From the NCBI RefSeq assembly GCF_058153355.1, contig NZ_CM177019.1: a stretch of DNA of 64,000 nt. One strand, 5' to 3'. A program made the translations under genes and the position numbers. The notes beneath the pieces were generated by a model. That model searched no databases, was not told the origin of the DNA, and saw only the letters and a list, made by a program, of their open reading frames with translations. This document shows, one piece after another, positions 6,681-54,250 of this stretch. Each line of letters begins with the position of its first letter. The stretch's first letter is position 1.

Positions 6681-7132
6681 CTGATAAGACGCGTCAGCGT
6701 CGCATCAGTCAACCGGCTTGGGCGTTAGATGTCGGATGCGGCGTGACCGCCTTATCCGACCTATGGGGTGGAGCACTTCACAGCGGTGTAGGCCTGATAA
6801 GACGCGCCAGCGTCGCATCAGTCAACTGGCTTGGGCGTTAGATGTCGGATGCGGCGTGACCGCCTTATCCGACCTACGGGGTGGAGCACTTCACAGCGGT
6901 GTAGGCCTGATAAGACGCGCCAGCGTCGCATCAGGCAACCGGCTCGGGCATTAGATGTCGGATGCGGCGTGACCGCCTTATCCGACCTACGGGGTGGAGC
7001 ACTTCACAGCGGTGTAGGCCTGATAAGACGCGCCAGCGTCGCATCAGGCAACCGGCTTGGGCGTTAGATGTCGGATGCGGCGTGACCGCCTTATCCGACC
7101 TACGGGGTGCCACACTTCACGGCAGTTTAGCG
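6681..7132. repeat. Tandem array of four ~113-bp REP/BIME units in the mqo-eco intergenic region
   Basis: The motif ctgataagacgcg recurs at 6681, 6794, 6907 and 7020 (period 113 bp); each unit holds two inverted REP-like palindromes (ctgataagacgcgccagcgtcgcatcag and gatgcggcgtgaccgccttatccgacctac). Confidence 0.8.
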
Positions 7133-35398: not shown

Positions 35399-35730
35399 TC
35401 TATTGCACAACGAGGAAGCTAAAAGGCTTCCTTTGTTGATGCATGTCAACCACAAATCCATCATTCCCCCGATATATGTTTATTTTATGTAAAATCAATT
35501 TATGTAAAAAGTCACATCATTGTAGTTAAAAAGGTTGAGTTAGATCGCAGAAACGGGTACATATAGCCCCGCAAACGTGACCACGCCCGCAGATATTATT
35601 TAAATCAGAGCCATAGAGGCCACGCTGGCGAGGCATCAATCTTTACGATCTGTATAAAGACGGATTGTTGATGATGTGTTAAAATTGATGTAAACAAATT
35701 GTGAAGTAAATGTGCTTCCGGGGAAAATAA

Positions 35731-36075
35731 GTGACTTCATTACAACTCTCAATCGTCCATCGACTGCCGCAGAACTATCGCTGGTCTGCTGGTTTCGCAG
35801 GTTCGAAGGTTGAACCGATTCCGCAAAATGGACCGTGCGGTGACAACAGCCTGGTGGCGCTTAAATTGCTTAGCCCGGATGGTGATAATGCATGGTCGGT
35901 GATGTACAAACTAAGCCAGGCGTTAAGCGACATCGAAGTTCCATGCTCGGTACTGGAGTGTGAAGGTGAGCCGTGCCTGTTTGTAAATCGCCAGGACGAG
36001 TTTGCTGCAACATGCCGATTGAAAAATTTTGGTGTGGCAATTGCCGAACCCTTCTCAAACTACAATCCTTTTTAA
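35731..36075 (+). CDS. yejG: Uncharacterized protein YejG
   Basis: 114-aa ORF preceded by a long AT-rich intergenic region; synteny. Confidence 0.8.
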
Positions 36076-36078
36076 GCG

Positions 36079-37668
36079 TCAGCTCAACGCCAGTAGCTGA
36101 CGCGTATACTCCTGCTGCGGTGCGGCAAACACGCGCGCGCACGGTCCTTGTTCCACTACTTCCCCTTGTCGCAGTACGATAACCTGATGACATAACGCGC
36201 GGACAACGTGCAAATCGTGACTGATAAACAAATAGGCCAATTGATGCTTTTGTTGCAATGATTTCAATAGCGTCAATATTTGCGCCTGTACCGTTTTGTC
36301 GAGCGATGATGTTGGTTCATCAAGAATGATCAGCGAGGGCTTAAGAATTAACGCCCTGGCAATCGCAATACGTTGCCGCTGACCACCAGAGAACTCCGCC
36401 GGATAACGGTGGCGTGTTTCAGGATCTAATCCCACTTCATGCATCACGGCTATCACTTGTTGTTCGCGTTGCACGGCAGAAAGCATCGGCTGGTGAACCC
36501 GTAAACCTTCCTCGATAATTTGCAAAACGTTGAGTCGTGGGTTGAGCGAGGAGTTAGGATCCTGAAATACCACCTGAATGCGATGGCGAATAGGTAATAG
36601 CTGACGGCGGTTTAAATTTTGCAATGGCTGACCGTCAAAAACGATGCTGCCCTGAGAGTTAATCAGTCGCAGCAGCGCCAGTCCCGTCGTGCTTTTCCCG
36701 GAACCGGACTCGCCCACTAAACCCAGTGTTTCACCCGCCCGTAGCGTAAAACTGATGTTTTTCACCACCACATTATGATCCACAATGCGCTTCAAAATCC
36801 CTTTGCGAATGGGGAAGGCAACCTGAAGCTGTTCAACATCTAGCAACGTTGAGGCAGGTTCTGGCAATGGGACCGGGTCGCCTGATGGTTCACTGTTGAG
36901 TAGCTTTTGTGTGTAGGGATGAGTGGGTGAGGCAAATAGCGTAGCAGCGTTATTTTGCTCGACACAGCGACCGTTTTGCATTACCGCCACGCGGTGAGCC
37001 AGTTTTCTGACAATACTGAGGTTATGAGTAATAAACAGCATGCCCATATTCAGCTCGCCTTGCAGTTCGCGCAACAGCTGTAAAATCTGCGCCTGGACAG
37101 AGACGTCCAGCGCGGTGGTCGGTTCATCGGCAATTAATAATTCCGGTCGCGTTAACAGCGCCATCGCAATCATCACCCGCTGGCGTTCGCCGCCGGAGAG
37201 CTGATGCGGATAATCTGTCAGCCGTTTTGCCGCCTGGCGGATACCGACGCGATCAAGGCAGTTAAGAATTTCGCCACGAGCCGCTTCCCGACGCATCCCG
37301 CGGTGGAGTGAAAGCACTTCATAAAGCTGTTTTTCCAGGGTATGCAATGGATTTAACGACACCATCGGTTCCTGAAAAATCATGGCAATCTTATTACCGC
37401 GTACACCGCGTAACGTTTGATCGCTGGCATGAAGCAGCGATTCGCCATGAAAACGAATATCGCCGGAGAGATATTCAACCGGCGGGGAAGGGAGCAGGCG
37501 TAAAATTGACAGCGCGGTAACGCTCTTACCTGAACCAGACTCACCCACCAGCGCCAGCGTTTCGCCAGCCTCAATCTGTAGTGAAACATCATTGACTACT
37601 GTGCGTACGGTTTGCTGATGGCGAAAACCCACCGACAAATTTTCAATCGCTAACAGAGTTTGCGTCAT
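36079..37668 (-). CDS. yejF: ABC transporter ATP-binding protein YejF (peptide/microcin C uptake; duplicated ATPase)
   Basis: 529-aa product from internal ATG ([11 protein letters not shown]...); two Walker A motifs (GESGSGKS twice) and two ABC signatures. Confidence 0.9.
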
Positions 37669-48673: not shown

Positions 48674-48928
48674 ATGGAATGCCGTCCGGGTTGCGGGGCG
48701 TGTTGCACTGCCCCTTCAATTTCCAGCCCTATTCCCGGTATGCCAGATGGCAAGCCCGCCAATACGCCCTGCATTCAGCTTGATGAACAGCAACGCTGTA
48801 AAATTTTCACCTCGCCACTGCGGCCGAAAGTCTGTGCAGGCTTACAAGCCAGCGCTGAAATGTGCGGTAACTCGCGTCAGCAGGCAATGACCTGGCTTAT
48901 CGATCTGGAAATGCTGACCGCGCCTTAA
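48674..48928 (+). CDS. yeiW: Small Cys-rich protein YeiW
   Basis: 84-aa product ([19 protein letters not shown]...), Cys-rich; start chosen by length and synteny. Confidence 0.7.
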
Positions 48929-50106
48929 ACATCTTTAATCCGCAGTAAGCAAAACAGAGTGGCGACAATCATCACCATCGCAAACCAGAACACAGCGTGA
49001 TAATTCCAGATCTCGGCGACGATGCCCGCCACAGATCCTGCGATGATCCAGCCCACGCGCGACGTGTTGGTATAGAGCGTGGTGGCTGAACCTGCCTGAC
49101 CGGGCATCAAATCCTGAAAATAGAGCATCCCGATGCCGCCCAGAATGCCAATAAAAATAGCATTTAGCAGCTGCAAGCCCAACAGAATGGCAGGTGAATG
49201 CGCCATCAGCATTCCTGCGTAAAAACAGACGCCACCCACGGCAGCAACGCGCATTAAGAAACGCTTACCCAGACGTTTGGCAAAATATCCGGCAATCAAC
49301 ATGGTCGGGATTTCCAGCCCGGCGGCGGTCCCCATCATCACGCCTGCCAGTTTCTCGGGAAGATGCAGTTCGTTGATAATAAATAGTGGCATGTTGATGA
49401 TGTACAGGCTGTTCGAGCCCCACATCAATGTACAAATGACAAACAGCAGCAGCGTATCGCGACGGTTACGGCGCGGCGCTTCAACCGTGCCGGTCGCCAG
49501 CGGAAGCTCTTTTTGCATCGACGGTAAAAACAGCCACACCATCACGCCGCAAACAATAAACGCTACCGCTGCGCTCAGATACATTACCGTAAAGCTGAAA
49601 CCCATCGCTAAGGCATAAGCCAGCGGCGGGCCAATGACCCATGCCAGTGAAACCTGAGCGCGTAAAAAAGAGCTGAACATCACCGCCTCACGTCCGGTTT
49701 TGTCGGCATGTTCACGAGCAAGGGCAAACATTTGCGGGTTAGCGGTCGAGCCAAAGCTGCTAAGAAAGACGCCAACGAATAGCAAAACAAAGTAGTTGCG
49801 ATTCCAGGCAAAAAGGGTGCAGGCCAGCACGCCTAACAGGCAGCAAAAGACAATCAGCGATTTGCGATCGCCGCGCTTATCAGAGCGCCCGGCGAGAAAC
49901 TGACTGACCAGAATCCCAATGACAGCGCTGCCGGTAAAGAAGAATCCCACCATCGCCGGACGGGCATGTACTTCATCGGTAAGGAAAATACTGAGTGTCG
50001 GGGTTTGCAGAGCGCCCGCAATACCGGTGAGAAAGGCAACGATTAAAAACGCCGTCGAGGTCAGGTCAAACGATTTCGCGCTGGAGACTGCGGGGGAGTT
50101 ATGCAT
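48925..50106 (-). CDS. setB: Sugar efflux transporter SetB (MFS)
   Basis: 393-aa, 12-TM MFS ORF; synteny next to the fru operon. Confidence 0.9.
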
Positions 50107-50373
50107 GCTGGTCGATCACTGGAAGAGGAAGACGCGGAGTTTACGCTGCTTGTTAGAAAATAAACAGACAGCGAAATCAAAAGCGCCACGAATAATCAAA
50201 ATGCCATTTCACTGTTGCTGATTGTCTGCTGACGCTGCTGAATTGAAATTACTGACCACGGATTTTCCCATCAGCAATTAGGAAAAATGACAAAAAATTG
50301 TGCAGCACATCAAACTTTTGCTCATTACTTTACGGCTTTCCTTGCGTGCTGAAACAGAAGTATTATGCTTTCT

Positions 50374-50452
50374 TGAAACGTTTCAGCGCGATCTTGTCTT
50401 TAACCCTAAGTCAGGTTGGCGCTTTTTTTCTCATAGAAGCTGAATCGTTTCA
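50374..50452 (+). promoter_or_regulatory. fruBKA promoter region with two Cra(FruR)-type operators
   Basis: Perfect palindrome TGAAACGTTTCA at 50374-50385 and TGAATCGTTTCA (within gctgaatcgtttcaattcagc) at 50441-50452, matching the Cra consensus TGAAWC-GWTTCA, 20-100 bp upstream of fruB. Confidence 0.6.
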
Positions 50453-50473
50453 ATTCAGCAAGAGAGGAGAACT

Positions 50474-51604
50474 ATGTTCCAGTTATCCGTACAGGACATC
50501 CATCCGGGCGAAAAGGCCGGAGACAAAGAAGAGGCGATTCGCCAGGTCGCTGCGGCGCTGGTGCAGGCCGGTAATGTAGCTGAAGGCTACGTCAATGGCA
50601 TGCTGGCGCGCGAACAGCAAACCTCTACGTTCCTCGGCAATGGTATTGCTATTCCACACGGCACTACCGACACCCGCGATCAGGTGCTGAAAACCGGCGT
50701 TCAGGTATTTCAGTTCCCGGAAGGCGTCACCTGGGGTGACGGCCAGGTAGCGTACGTGGCGATCGGTATTGCTGCCAGCTCGGATGAACATCTGGGTCTG
50801 TTACGCCAGCTGACCCACGTACTGAGCGATGATTCCGTTGCTGAACAGCTGAAGTCAGCAACGACAGCAGAAGAACTTCGCGCATTGCTGATGGGCGAAA
50901 AGCAGAGTGAGCAGCTGAAGCTCGATAACGAAATGCTGACGCTGGATATTGTCGCCAGCGATCTGCTGACGCTTCAGGCGCTTAACGCTGCGCGTCTGAA
51001 AGAAGCAGGGGCAGTTGACGCCACCTTCGTCACTAAAGCCATCAATGAACAACCGCTGAACCTCGGACAGGGCATCTGGCTGAGCGATAGCGCTGAAGGC
51101 AATTTGCGTAGCGCGATTGCGGTAAGCCGTGCGGCAAATGCTTTTGATGTGGACGGCGAAACGGCAGCCATGCTGGTGAGTGTGGCGATGAATGACGATC
51201 AGCCCGTCGCGGTTCTTAAGCGTCTCGCTGATTTGTTGCTCGACAATAAAGCTGACCGTTTGCTGAAAGCGGATGCGGCAACGTTGCTGGCGCTGCTGAC
51301 CAGCGATGATGCGCCGACCGACGACGTGTTAAGCGCGGAGTTTGTGGTGCGCAATGAACACGGCCTGCATGCTCGTCCAGGTACCATGCTGGTCAATACT
51401 ATTAAACAATTTAACAGTGATATTACCGTGACAAACCTTGATGGCACCGGCAAACCGGCAAACGGACGTAGTCTGATGAAAGTTGTGGCACTTGGCGTTA
51501 AGAAAGGTCATCGCCTACGCTTTACCGCCCAGGGTGCAGATGCTGAGCAGGCGCTGAAAGCCATTGGCGACGCTATCGCTGCTGGTCTTGGGGAGGGCGC
51601 ATAA
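50474..51604 (+). CDS. fruB: Fructose PTS multiphosphoryl transfer protein FruB (EIIA-M-FPr)
   Basis: 376-aa ORF; N-terminal EIIA(Fru)-like domain and C-terminal HPr-like domain (GLHARPG). Confidence 0.92.
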
Positions 51605-52542
51605 TGAGCAGACGTGTTGCTACTATCACCCTTAATCCGGCTTATGACCTTGTTGGTTTCTGCCCGGAAATTGAACGCGGCGAAGTGAACCTGGTGAAAA
51701 CCACCGGTCTGCATGCGGCGGGTAAAGGCATCAACGTGGCCAAAGTATTAAAAGACCTGGGAATTGATGTCACCGTTGGCGGCTTCCTCGGTAAAGACAA
51801 TCAGGATGGTTTTCAGCAACTGTTCAGCGAGCTGGGCATTGCCAACCGTTTCCAGGTTGTACAGGGGCGCACCCGAATTAACGTTAAGCTGACGGAAAAA
51901 GACGGCGAAGTGACCGACTTCAACTTCTCGGGTTTTGAAGTTACCCCCGCCGACTGGGAACGCTTTGTGACTGATTCTCTGAGCTGGCTCGGTCAGTTCG
52001 ATATGGTCTGTGTCAGCGGAAGCTTACCGTCAGGCGTCAGCCCGGAAGCGTTCACCGACTGGATGACTCGCCTGCGTAGTCAGTGTCCTTGCATTATCTT
52101 TGATAGTAGCCGTGAAGCGTTAGTGGCAGGTTTGAAAGCGGCACCGTGGCTGGTGAAACCTAACCGCCGCGAGCTGGAAATCTGGGCGGGCCGTAAACTG
52201 CCTGAAATGAAAGATGTGATTGAAGCTGCGCATGCGCTGCGTGAACAAGGTATCGCGCATGTCGTTATTTCACTGGGTGCCGAAGGCGCGCTTTGGGTTA
52301 ATGCCTCCGGCGAATGGATCGCCAAACCACCGTCAGTCGATGTCGTAAGCACCGTTGGCGCAGGGGATTCTATGGTTGGTGGCCTGATTTATGGCTTGCT
52401 GATGCGTGAATCCAGTGAGCACACACTGCGTCTGGCGACAGCTGTTGCAGCCCTGGCGGTAAGTCAAAGCAATGTGGGTATTACCGATCGTCCGCAGTTG
52501 GCCGCAATGATGGCGCGCGTCGACTTACAACCTTTTAACTGA
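51604..52542 (+). CDS. fruK: 1-phosphofructokinase
   Basis: 312-aa PfkB-family ORF (GG motif, C-terminal GAGDSMVGG). Confidence 0.92.
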   Translation: MSRRVATITLNPAYDLVGFCPEIERGEVNLVKTTGLHAAGKGINVAKVLKDLGIDVTVGGFLGKDNQDGFQQLFSELGIANRFQVVQGRTRINVKLTEKDGEVTDFNFSGFEVTPADWERFVTDSLSWLGQFDMVCVSGSLPSGVSPEAFTDWMTRLRSQCPCIIFDSSREALVAGLKAAPWLVKPNRRELEIWAGRKLPEMKDVIEAAHALREQGIAHVVISLGAEGALWVNASGEWIAKPPSVDVVSTVGAGDSMVGGLIYGLLMRESSEHTLRLATAVAALAVSQSNVGITDRPQLAAMMARVDLQPFN

Positions 52543-52558
52543 CAGCAGGAGAGGCATA

Positions 52559-54250
52559 ATGAAAACGCTGCTGATTATTGACGCTAATCTCGGTCAGGCA
52601 CGCGCCTATATGGCGAAGACCCTGCTGGGCGCGGCGGCGCGAAAAGCAAAACTGGAAATCATCGACAATCCGAACGACGCTGAAATGGCGATTGTTCTCG
52701 GTGATTCCATCCCGAACGACAGCGCGCTGAACGGTAAAAATGTCTGGCTGGGCGATATTTCCCGGGCAGTTGCGCACCCTGAGCTGTTCCTGAGTGAAGC
52801 CAAAGGCCATGCGAAACCTTACACTGCACCGGTCGCTGCGACAGCACCAGTTGCCACCAGTGGTCCGAAACGCGTAGTTGCGGTGACAGCTTGCCCGACT
52901 GGCGTAGCACACACATTTATGGCGGCTGAAGCCATTGAAACCGAAGCGAAAAAACGTGGCTGGTGGGTGAAAGTTGAAACCCGTGGTTCTGTTGGCGCGG
53001 GTAATGCGATCACCCCTGAAGAAGTAGCCGCAGCGGATCTGGTGATTGTGGCGGCAGATATCGAAGTGGATCTGGCGAAATTTGCTGGTAAACCGATGTA
53101 TCGCACCTCTACCGGTCTGGCGCTGAAGAAAACCGCGCAGGAACTGGATAAAGCGGTTGCTGAAGCAACGCCGTATGAACCGGCGGGCAAAGCTCAAACA
53201 GCGACCACTGAAGGTAAGAAAGAGGGTGCAGGCGCTTACCGTCACTTGCTGACGGGCGTCTCTTACATGCTGCCGATGGTCGTTGCAGGTGGTCTGTGTA
53301 TCGCGCTTTCTTTTGCTTTTGGTATCGAAGCGTTTAAAGAGCCGGGTACGTTGGCAGCGGCGCTGATGCAGATTGGTGGTGGTTCAGCCTTTGCGCTGAT
53401 GGTGCCGGTACTGGCAGGTTACATTGCCTTCTCCATTGCCGATCGTCCGGGTCTCACGCCGGGTCTGATTGGCGGTATGCTGGCGGTCAGCACCGGTTCT
53501 GGCTTCATTGGGGGTATTATTGCGGGCTTCCTGGCTGGTTACATTGCGAAGTTAATCAGTACGCAACTGAAACTGCCACAGAGTATGGAGGCGCTGAAAC
53601 CGATCCTGATCATTCCGCTAATTTCCAGTCTGGTGGTCGGTCTGGCGATGATCTACCTGATCGGTAAACCGGTTGCTGGCATTCTCGAAGGGTTGACTCA
53701 CTGGCTGCAGACCATGGGGACTGCGAATGCGGTTCTGCTGGGGGCGATCCTCGGTGGCATGATGTGTACTGACATGGGCGGTCCGGTAAATAAAGCAGCG
53801 TACGCATTCGGTGTGGGTCTGCTGAGTACTCAAACCTATGGCCCGATGGCGGCGATTATGGCGGCAGGTATGGTGCCACCGCTGGCAATGGGTCTGGCAA
53901 CAATGGTGGCGCGTCGCAAATTCGACAAAGCGCAGCAGGAAGGTGGCAAAGCCGCTCTGGTTCTTGGTCTGTGCTTTATTTCGGAAGGTGCAATTCCGTT
54001 TGCTGCTCGTGATCCGATGCGTGTGCTGCCGTGTTGTATCGTTGGTGGGGCGCTGACTGGCGCAATCTCAATGGCGATTGGTGCGAAACTGATGGCACCG
54101 CACGGTGGTCTGTTTGTTCTGCTGATCCCTGGCGCTATTACGCCGGTACTGGGTTACCTGGTAGCAATTATTGCCGGTACGCTGGTGGCGGGTTTGGCCT
54201 ATGCCTTTCTGAAACGTCCGGAAGTGGACGCAGTAGCGAAAGCAGCGTAA
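52559..54250 (+). CDS. fruA: Fructose PTS EIIB'BC component FruA
   Basis: 563-aa ORF; EIIB Cys motif (VTACPTGVAHT) and polytopic EIIC domain. Confidence 0.92.
   Translation: MKTLLIIDANLGQARAYMAKTLLGAAARKAKLEIIDNPNDAEMAIVLGDSIPNDSALNGKNVWLGDISRAVAHPELFLSEAKGHAKPYTAPVAATAPVATSGPKRVVAVTACPTGVAHTFMAAEAIETEAKKRGWWVKVETRGSVGAGNAITPEEVAAADLVIVAADIEVDLAKFAGKPMYRTSTGLALKKTAQELDKAVAEATPYEPAGKAQTATTEGKKEGAGAYRHLLTGVSYMLPMVVAGGLCIALSFAFGIEAFKEPGTLAAALMQIGGGSAFALMVPVLAGYIAFSIADRPGLTPGLIGGMLAVSTGSGFIGGIIAGFLAGYIAKLISTQLKLPQSMEALKPILIIPLISSLVVGLAMIYLIGKPVAGILEGLTHWLQTMGTANAVLLGAILGGMMCTDMGGPVNKAAYAFGVGLLSTQTYGPMAAIMAAGMVPPLAMGLATMVARRKFDKAQQEGGKAALVLGLCFISEGAIPFAARDPMRVLPCCIVGGALTGAISMAIGAKLMAPHGGLFVLLIPGAITPVLGYLVAIIAGTLVAGLAYAFLKRPEVDAVAKAA

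Follow-up and report, generated by a model that had tools for sequence, protein, structure and literature searches.

The window, by which we mean the whole 64-kb stretch of DNA that was analysed, carries the fruBKA operon together with the divergent gene setB, and two palindromic sites lie between them. The genes and the elements around the start of the operon are given below, with positions relative to the transcription start (+1) in brackets.

48925–50106, minus strand: setB, divergent sugar efflux transporter gene upstream of fruB; the open reading frame corresponds to SetB.
50296–50317, no strand assigned: CRP-like site with core TGTGC-N6-TCAAA at 50299–50314 (centre −69.5); conserved, with a putative assignment.
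50342–50347 (−34 to −29), plus strand: putative −35 element of fruB, TTGCGT, placed from the start site; CTTGC is conserved.
50364–50369 (−12 to −7), plus strand: putative −10 element of fruB, TATGCT, placed from the mapped start site, with a 16-bp spacer to the −35 element.
50376, plus strand: fruBKA transcription start (+1), K-12 position 2263593 transferred via an indel-free alignment.
50374–50385, minus strand: core TGAAACGTTTCA of Cra operator 1 ('fruB proximal'), with the 14-mer GCTGAAACGTTTCA at 50374–50387; assigned by consensus match, K-12 identity and conservation.
50441–50452, plus strand: core TGAATCGTTTCA of Cra operator 2 ('fruB distal'), with the 14-mer GCTGAATCGTTTCA at 50439–50452; assigned by consensus match, K-12 identity and conservation.
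50474–54250, plus strand: fruBKA operon (fruB 50474–51604, fruK 51604–52542, fruA 52559–54250), assigned by full-length NCBIfam equivalog matches.

The RefSeq annotation of E. coli K-12 and of E. coli IAI39 has the same gene layout, and the region was found in 5417 of 5426 complete E. coli genomes with 95–99% identity. FruB is 100% identical to the FruB of Escherichia sp. MOD1-EC7003, and the K-12 start site of setB (coordinate 2263836) falls at 50133 by alignment transfer. Among the targets of Cra, a master regulator of carbon flux, fruBKA is the founding one. A tblastn search of the 64-kb window with an approximate Cra sequence as query returned no gene of the LacI family, so that the regulator appears to be unlinked to fruBKA; the cra gene of E. 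coli is likewise unlinked to this operon.

The earlier note had placed two palindromes 67 bp apart upstream of fruB, and both are present exactly at the coordinates that it gave, the distance being measured from start to start. The core of operator 1, TGAAACGTTTCA, is a perfect palindrome. The sequence runs ...ttcTTGAAACGTTTCAgcgcg... around operator 1 and ...gaaGCTGAATCGTTTCAATTCAGCaag... around operator 2. A site was counted as a Cra operator if it conformed to the 14-bp consensus GCTGAAnCGnTTCA with the core TGAAWCGWTTCA, and both sites do; against the 14-bp Cra consensus GCTGAANCGNTTCA there are 0 mismatches at operator 1 on the minus strand and at operator 2 on the plus strand. As the two sites match the consensus on opposite strands, their GC-extended half-sites point toward one another. 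Counting both strands, the 64-kb window holds two copies of the core pattern TGAAWCGWTTCA, against an expectation of 0.01 from 100 dinucleotide-preserving shuffles, none of which contained two matches. The sole further 14-mer in the window with no more than one mismatch to the Cra 14-mer is GCGGAATCGGTTCA (35811–35824, minus strand), which lies inside the yejG coding sequence and was set aside as probably a chance match.

Characterised operators from E. coli provided the comparison that the earlier note had asked for. Table 1 of PMC11157272 lists the sequences 'fruBproximal', TTCTTGAAACGTTTCAGC, and 'fruBdistal', GAGGCTGAATCGTTTCAA, and that paper gives Ramseier et al. 1993 as the source of both. 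Window positions 50370–50387 reproduce 'fruBproximal' exactly, and positions 50436–50453 reproduce 'fruBdistal' save for one flanking base (A at 50438, G in K-12). Alignment of the setB–fruB intergenic region with K-12 covers 381 nt without an indel and with 12 substitutions, none of them in the operator cores; the K-12 sequence thus differs in the one base of the upstream flank of operator 2 and in 11 other positions. The 12-bp cores of both sites, the sequence flanking operator 1 and the 67-bp spacing are shared with the fruBKA operons of E. coli K-12 and Salmonella, in which the operators are also placed in the same way with respect to start site, ATG and setB.

Binding of Cra to both E. 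coli fruB operators has been measured by biolayer interferometry and visualised by atomic force microscopy (AFM), in which each of the two operators on a single DNA was seen to carry its own Cra dimer (PMC11157272). E. coli FruR is described as repressing fru in the absence of fructose-1-phosphate (F1P) by binding downstream of the start site (PMC7897506), and the weakening of Cra binding by F1P has been published for E. coli sequences identical to those of the window. The cores are identical to K-12 operators that Cra binds and their positions are conserved, which supports the Cra interpretation, one that is already known. The genes are indeed fruBKA, and the control of the fructose PTS operon by Cra that the earlier note had expected is borne out. 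From sequence identity and conservation we have little doubt that the two palindromes serve as Cra (FruR) operators repressing fruBKA in this strain. Since the Cra operator pair of fruBKA is already known, it can play the part of positive control that had been assigned to it: a classic operator pair was correctly recovered from the sequence, and this lends support to the other regulatory-site calls made in the window at that stage.

Conservation was followed in 80 species of Enterobacteriaceae, ranging from Escherichia to Franconibacter and Atlantibacter, which gave 79 distinct leaders; a wider homologue search with FruB had returned only near-identical proteins of Escherichia and Salmonella, so the comparison of layouts is one within Enterobacteriaceae. 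Every one of the 80 species has operator 2, at about −33 relative to the ATG. The core of operator 1, at about −100 from the ATG, is exact in 75 species, and the remaining 5 differ in its first two bases only. Its right half, GAAACGTTTCAGC, is invariant in all leaders, as are the operator core columns. Nearly all of the 80 species keep a spacing of 66–68 bp from start to start, and the gap between the operators is 50–52 bp in the 79 distinct leaders. Operator 2 reads TGAATCGTTTCA in Escherichia, Citrobacter and Salmonella and the reverse complement, TGAAACGATTCA, in most other genera. Its two central W positions change jointly, and the site is almost never a perfect palindrome, which operator 1 always is.

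The start site of fruBKA in K-12 is at 2263593 according to the SMRT-Cappable-seq table of PMC6131387, which leaves a 5' UTR of 98 nt before the fruB ATG at 50474 (+99). The core of operator 1 spans −2 to +10 and its 14-mer −2 to +12, overlapping +1. The core of operator 2 spans +66 to +77 and its 14-mer +64 to +77, within the transcribed leader and 22 nt before the ATG. The earlier description of both sites as lying in the fruBKA promoter is therefore loose, since the K-12 start site puts operator 1 across +1 and operator 2 in the leader.

A consensus scan of 50050–50520 for promoters and terminators returned no match. This negative result is uninformative, because the −10 element is weak and the long interrupted stem of the terminator described below exceeds the loop limit of the scan. 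The promoter of fruB is probably weak and activator-dependent, in which case a miss by a consensus scan is expected. For E. coli, a CRP site is placed about 60 nt before the start of fruB (PMC8088597), and the element at 50299–50314 would fit it. The CRP-like site is conserved as AAATGTGC-N6-TCTAA across genera, and overall as TGTGC-N6-TC(A/T)AA. A further GCTGAAAC half-site is found in the spacer between the −35 and −10 elements at 50345–50355; together with the right half of operator 1 (50380–50390) it makes up an inverted repeat of 11 nt (91%), and it is kept in some genera only.

The segment between the two operators contains an RNA element.

50386–50430, plus strand: predicted intrinsic terminator of the leader, consisting of hairpin P1 (50386–50422), U-tract (50423–50429) and 3' end at C50430 (+55); assigned by fold, covariation and Term-seq.

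In the P1 stem, GCGCGA (50386–50391), which follows directly on operator 1, pairs with TGGCGC (50417–50422), and U7 comes next. The minimum free energy (MFE) fold gives this hairpin −13.3 kcal/mol in the window. A hairpin with a U-rich tail is present in 79 of 79 leaders, starting 10 nt from the start site, with a mean energy of −14.1 kcal/mol (range −10.4 to −21.7 kcal/mol), and in all but two (77/79) the stem directly abuts the tail. P1 is recovered in the RNAalifold consensus of the 79 distinct leaders. Three of its six pairs covary (CG 32, UA 26 and UG 21 at the first; CG 43 and UA 22 at the second; AU 64 and GC 4 at the third). Over the whole tested structure 59 cells are changed on both sides, compared with 9.6 in column shuffles, none of 500 of which reached 59; control registers slid by 1–3 columns gave at most 17. 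As it is pairing and not sequence that the covariation keeps, the segment is better understood as an RNA structure than as a protein site.

An RNA 3' end has been mapped by Term-seq in K-12 at 2263539, 44 nt before the fruB ATG and ending ...GGCGCUUUUUUUC (Adams et al. 2021, PMC7815308). The same data set gives this end a Rho score of 0.26 ('No') and an intrinsic-terminator score of 9.61 against a threshold of 3, and leaves the column for a characterised regulatory element empty (PMC7815308). The end is listed in the sheets for LB OD 0.4 and LB OD 2.0, and a third listing is presumably that for M63-glucose; the main text of the paper makes no mention of fruB (PMC7815308). By alignment transfer K-12 2263539 corresponds to window position 50430, and a start at 50376 with a 3' end at 50430 predicts a leader RNA of 55 nt. 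The hairpin and U7 between the operators are thus, by prediction from the leader sequences and with the in-vivo 3' end supplied by the K-12 orthologue, an intrinsic (Rho-independent) leader terminator. An Rfam search of the leader gave chance-level matches only (E > 2), placing it in no described RNA family. We found no description of the terminator in the freely accessible papers searched, and searches of the sRNA literature returned nothing on an RNA from the fruB leader of E. coli or Salmonella. When the P1 arms were blocked in the comparison of 79 leaders, no conserved alternative pairing or RNA antiterminator emerged, and any regulation of the terminator would then have to come from protein or kinetics. 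Of all that this locus offers, only the conserved leader terminator with an operator on either side seems to us worth an experiment.

Two further pairings are predicted downstream of P1.

50439–50459, plus strand: inverted repeat around operator 2, GCTGAAT (50439–50445) and ATTCAGC (50453–50459) with a 7-nt spacer; found by repeat search.
50428–50468, plus strand: helix P3, UUCUC (50428–50432) with GAGGA (50464–50468, the Shine-Dalgarno region), enclosing the inverted repeat; assigned by fold and consensus.

The first of these is the longer inverted repeat in which operator 2 had been said to be embedded, and GCTGAAT(N7)ATTCAGC is present and conserved. A 7-bp repeat is not significant by itself; 6 of its 7 pairs are invariant across the 79 distinct orthologous leaders. 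The repeat forms hairpin P2 (50439–50459), with a 7-nt loop, in the MFE fold and in the RNAalifold consensus, and its invariant pairs carry no covariation information. It may act as an RNA hairpin or as an extended DNA site. P3 joins the end of the terminator's U-tract to the Shine-Dalgarno region, and a single pair in it shows covariation, being UA in 65 sequences, AU in 7 and unpaired in another 7: species with CAC for CUC mostly carry GUG for GAG, 7 being compensated and 7 broken. We regard the evidence for this helix as suggestive; it may sequester the Shine-Dalgarno sequence in read-through transcripts.

From these elements a scheme of regulation can be outlined. In the absence of fructose, Cra encoded elsewhere in the genome would bind both operators as dimers. 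At operator 1, which sits on the start site (−2 to +12), it would hinder initiation or the escape of polymerase from the promoter. Operator 2, being part of the transcribed leader, could act only on an elongating polymerase or on the RNA. Fructose entering through FruBA would yield fructose-1-phosphate, which would lower the affinity of Cra for DNA and so relieve repression. A division of labour between operator 1 and operator 2 is what this arrangement suggests, and the literature searched offers no explanation of why a second operator should lie deep in the leader.

Two published observations bear on the roles of the operators. A spontaneous deletion of 67 bp, which arose in E. coli BL21 during adaptive evolution on tagatose, relieved the repression of fruBKA more than 2-fold on every sugar (PMC10101011). 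The deleted segment corresponds to window positions 50386–50452, and evidently the deletion would have arisen by recombination between the two operators, which are direct repeats 67 bp apart. It takes P1, the U-tract, operator 2, the anti-Shine-Dalgarno tract and the GC flank of operator 1, and leaves the core of operator 1 in place. Operator 2, the terminator and the anti-Shine-Dalgarno tract are removed jointly, so that the effect of neither operator is isolated. The second observation concerns the short leader RNA, which is readily seen in LB to which no fructose has been added (PMC7815308), implying either that operator 1 does not fully silence initiation or that the RNA is unusually stable.

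We tentatively propose that the two operators and the terminator could work as one device, in which operator 1 would limit initiation, Cra at operator 2 would park polymerases that escape on the U-tract, and fruBKA would be controlled largely by repressor-dependent attenuation. If this were true, uninduced cells should contain the 55-nt leader RNA, and the Shine-Dalgarno sequence of read-through transcripts should be paired with the U-tract of the terminator. A terminator with operator 2 one polymerase footprint past its U-tract would give a simple explanation for the second operator, and such a module may also explain why laboratory evolution deleted precisely these 67 bp.

As a roadblock the mechanism would run as follows: Cra bound at operator 2 stalls the polymerase, its active site being on the U-tract just past P1, a leaky terminator becomes an efficient one and the 55-nt RNA is released, until F1P removes the Cra roadblock and permits read-through. 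Such assistance would elaborate how operator 2 acts and leaves its identity as it is. The case for it begins with the conserved and covarying hairpin with its U-tract between the operators, and with an in-vivo 3' end that coincides with the end of the U-tract, has a Rho-independent signature and was recorded at LB OD 0.4 and 2.0. The last U (50429) lies 10 bp before the 14-mer of operator 2, and the 79 leaders have no indel there. A polymerase halted by a DNA-bound protein stops roughly 11–15 nt before it, which we take to correspond to 50424–50428 at operator 2 and so to fall on the U-tract, where Cra would turn a pause into termination. The 67-bp deletion of the module also derepresses the operon although the core of operator 1 remains; like the presence of the short RNA in LB, this agrees with a roadblock and is no proof of it. 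Cra at operator 2 is, by geometry only, a candidate for the factor regulating the attenuator. The intrinsic-terminator score of 9.6 speaks against such assistance, since the terminator may be strong unaided; the deletion is confounded; and the fixed spacing discriminates weakly, as the whole gap between the operators varies by only 2 bp. No link between Cra, a roadblock and fruB was found in the literature searched. On balance we regard roadblock-assisted attenuation as possible and somewhat doubtful.

Cooperative looping would account for the pair of operators differently, with a Cra tetramer, or Cra dimers joined through FruK, bridging the two sites in a small loop and giving tight repression similar to that of lac. 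E. coli FruR has been described as a LacI-family protein that forms tetramers (PMC7897506), the spacing of the operators stays within 66–68 bp in nearly all of the 80 species, and an A/T tract lies between them. A distance of 67 bp from centre to centre corresponds, by our estimate, to about 6.4 helical turns, which puts the operators on nearly opposite faces of the helix and disfavours so short a loop. AFM showed separate dimers, and its authors state that longer spacings are needed to test looping (PMC11157272). The covariation between the operators preserves RNA pairing, moreover, which DNA bending leaves unexplained. Looping is in our judgement unlikely.

The reading in which the palindromes are bound by some other LacI-family repressor, or are chance or structural features with no role for Cra here, draws on the absence of a visible cra gene from the window and on an AACGTT-like central core that is common to many LacI-family operators, and it is close to refuted by the 0 mismatches of both sites to a 14-mer specific to Cra, by their identity with operators bound by purified Cra, by their position, orthologous to that in E. 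coli, with which the genome shares about 99% identity, by the lack of any LacI-family gene in the window and by a chance expectation of 0.01.

Repression of fruBKA by Cra from a pair of operators can be set beside several known systems. The fruR–fruB region of Vibrio cholerae resembles the window in the family of the regulator, in the TGAATCGATTCA-type motif and in sites that overlap and lie downstream of the start (PMC7897506, PMC8088597). It has three FruR sites, O1–O3, with fruR adjacent and divergent, whereas the window has two sites and an unlinked regulator gene. In Vibrio, the site from which FruR with F1P activates lies between the −35 and −10 elements; in the window repression is expected, and both sites are at or after +1. 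The start of the V. cholerae fruB leader also gives rise to a short transcript, IGR4, of 107 nt. Pseudomonas putida differs from the window in having a single operator, with cra adjacent to fruBKA. What it has in common with the window is repression by a Cra that F1P releases, through an operator located downstream of the start site of fruB (PMC4050194, PMC5141268).

The lac operon, with the LacI operators O1, O2 and O3, shares with the window a start-proximal operator and an auxiliary operator in transcribed DNA, both served by a repressor of the LacI family. The auxiliary lac operators act through looping by a tetramer at in-phase distances, whereas the sites in the window are spaced out of phase and separated by an RNA terminator. 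Leader terminators identified by Term-seq in E. coli (PMC7815308) have in common with that of the window a hairpin, a U-tract and Rho independence, with the 3' end here 44 nt before the start codon. The window's terminator is set apart from leader attenuators of that set in that no RNA antiterminator was found and that operators of the same repressor stand on both sides.

Upstream of the promoter elements lies a further conserved array.

50217–50275, no strand assigned: GCTGA/TCAGC array with copies at 50217, 50228 and 50237 (plus strand) and 50271 (minus strand), that is −159, −148, −139 and −105; from motif positions.

Between −170 and −81 the motif occurs in a mean of 3.8 copies, as against 0.145 in shuffles, and its positions are conserved (82 sequences). 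Only three clusters of the GCTGA type are present in the 64-kb window. The extended motif of the array is tGCTGA[A/C]g. Extra half-sites for Cra are an unlikely explanation, since beyond GCTGA the array runs [A/C]-G whereas Cra sites run W-C-G. A role in the control of setB was likewise rejected, as the array persists in six loci that have no setB upstream. A perfect inverted match of 13 nt, TGCTGAATTGAAA at 50236–50248 with TTTCAATTCAGCA at 50448–50460, connects the array with the right flank of operator 2 over a distance of 199 nt; it has a mismatch in K-12 and is therefore probably lineage-specific.

In comparisons with complete E. coli genomes, the best full-length matches to the setB–fruB region (50100–50600) have no more than 98.8% identity, and 99% is reached in only 4 records. 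For the yejG region (35600–36100), by contrast, several E. coli genomes match at 100%, and 853 at 99% or above. Such a difference in identity between two regions of one window hints at a possible mosaic ancestry. Elsewhere in the window, at 6681–7120 and just after an open reading frame of 548 amino acids, there is a 113-bp tandem repeat in 3.9 copies with 96% identity, which contains REP-like palindromes (a BIME-type array).
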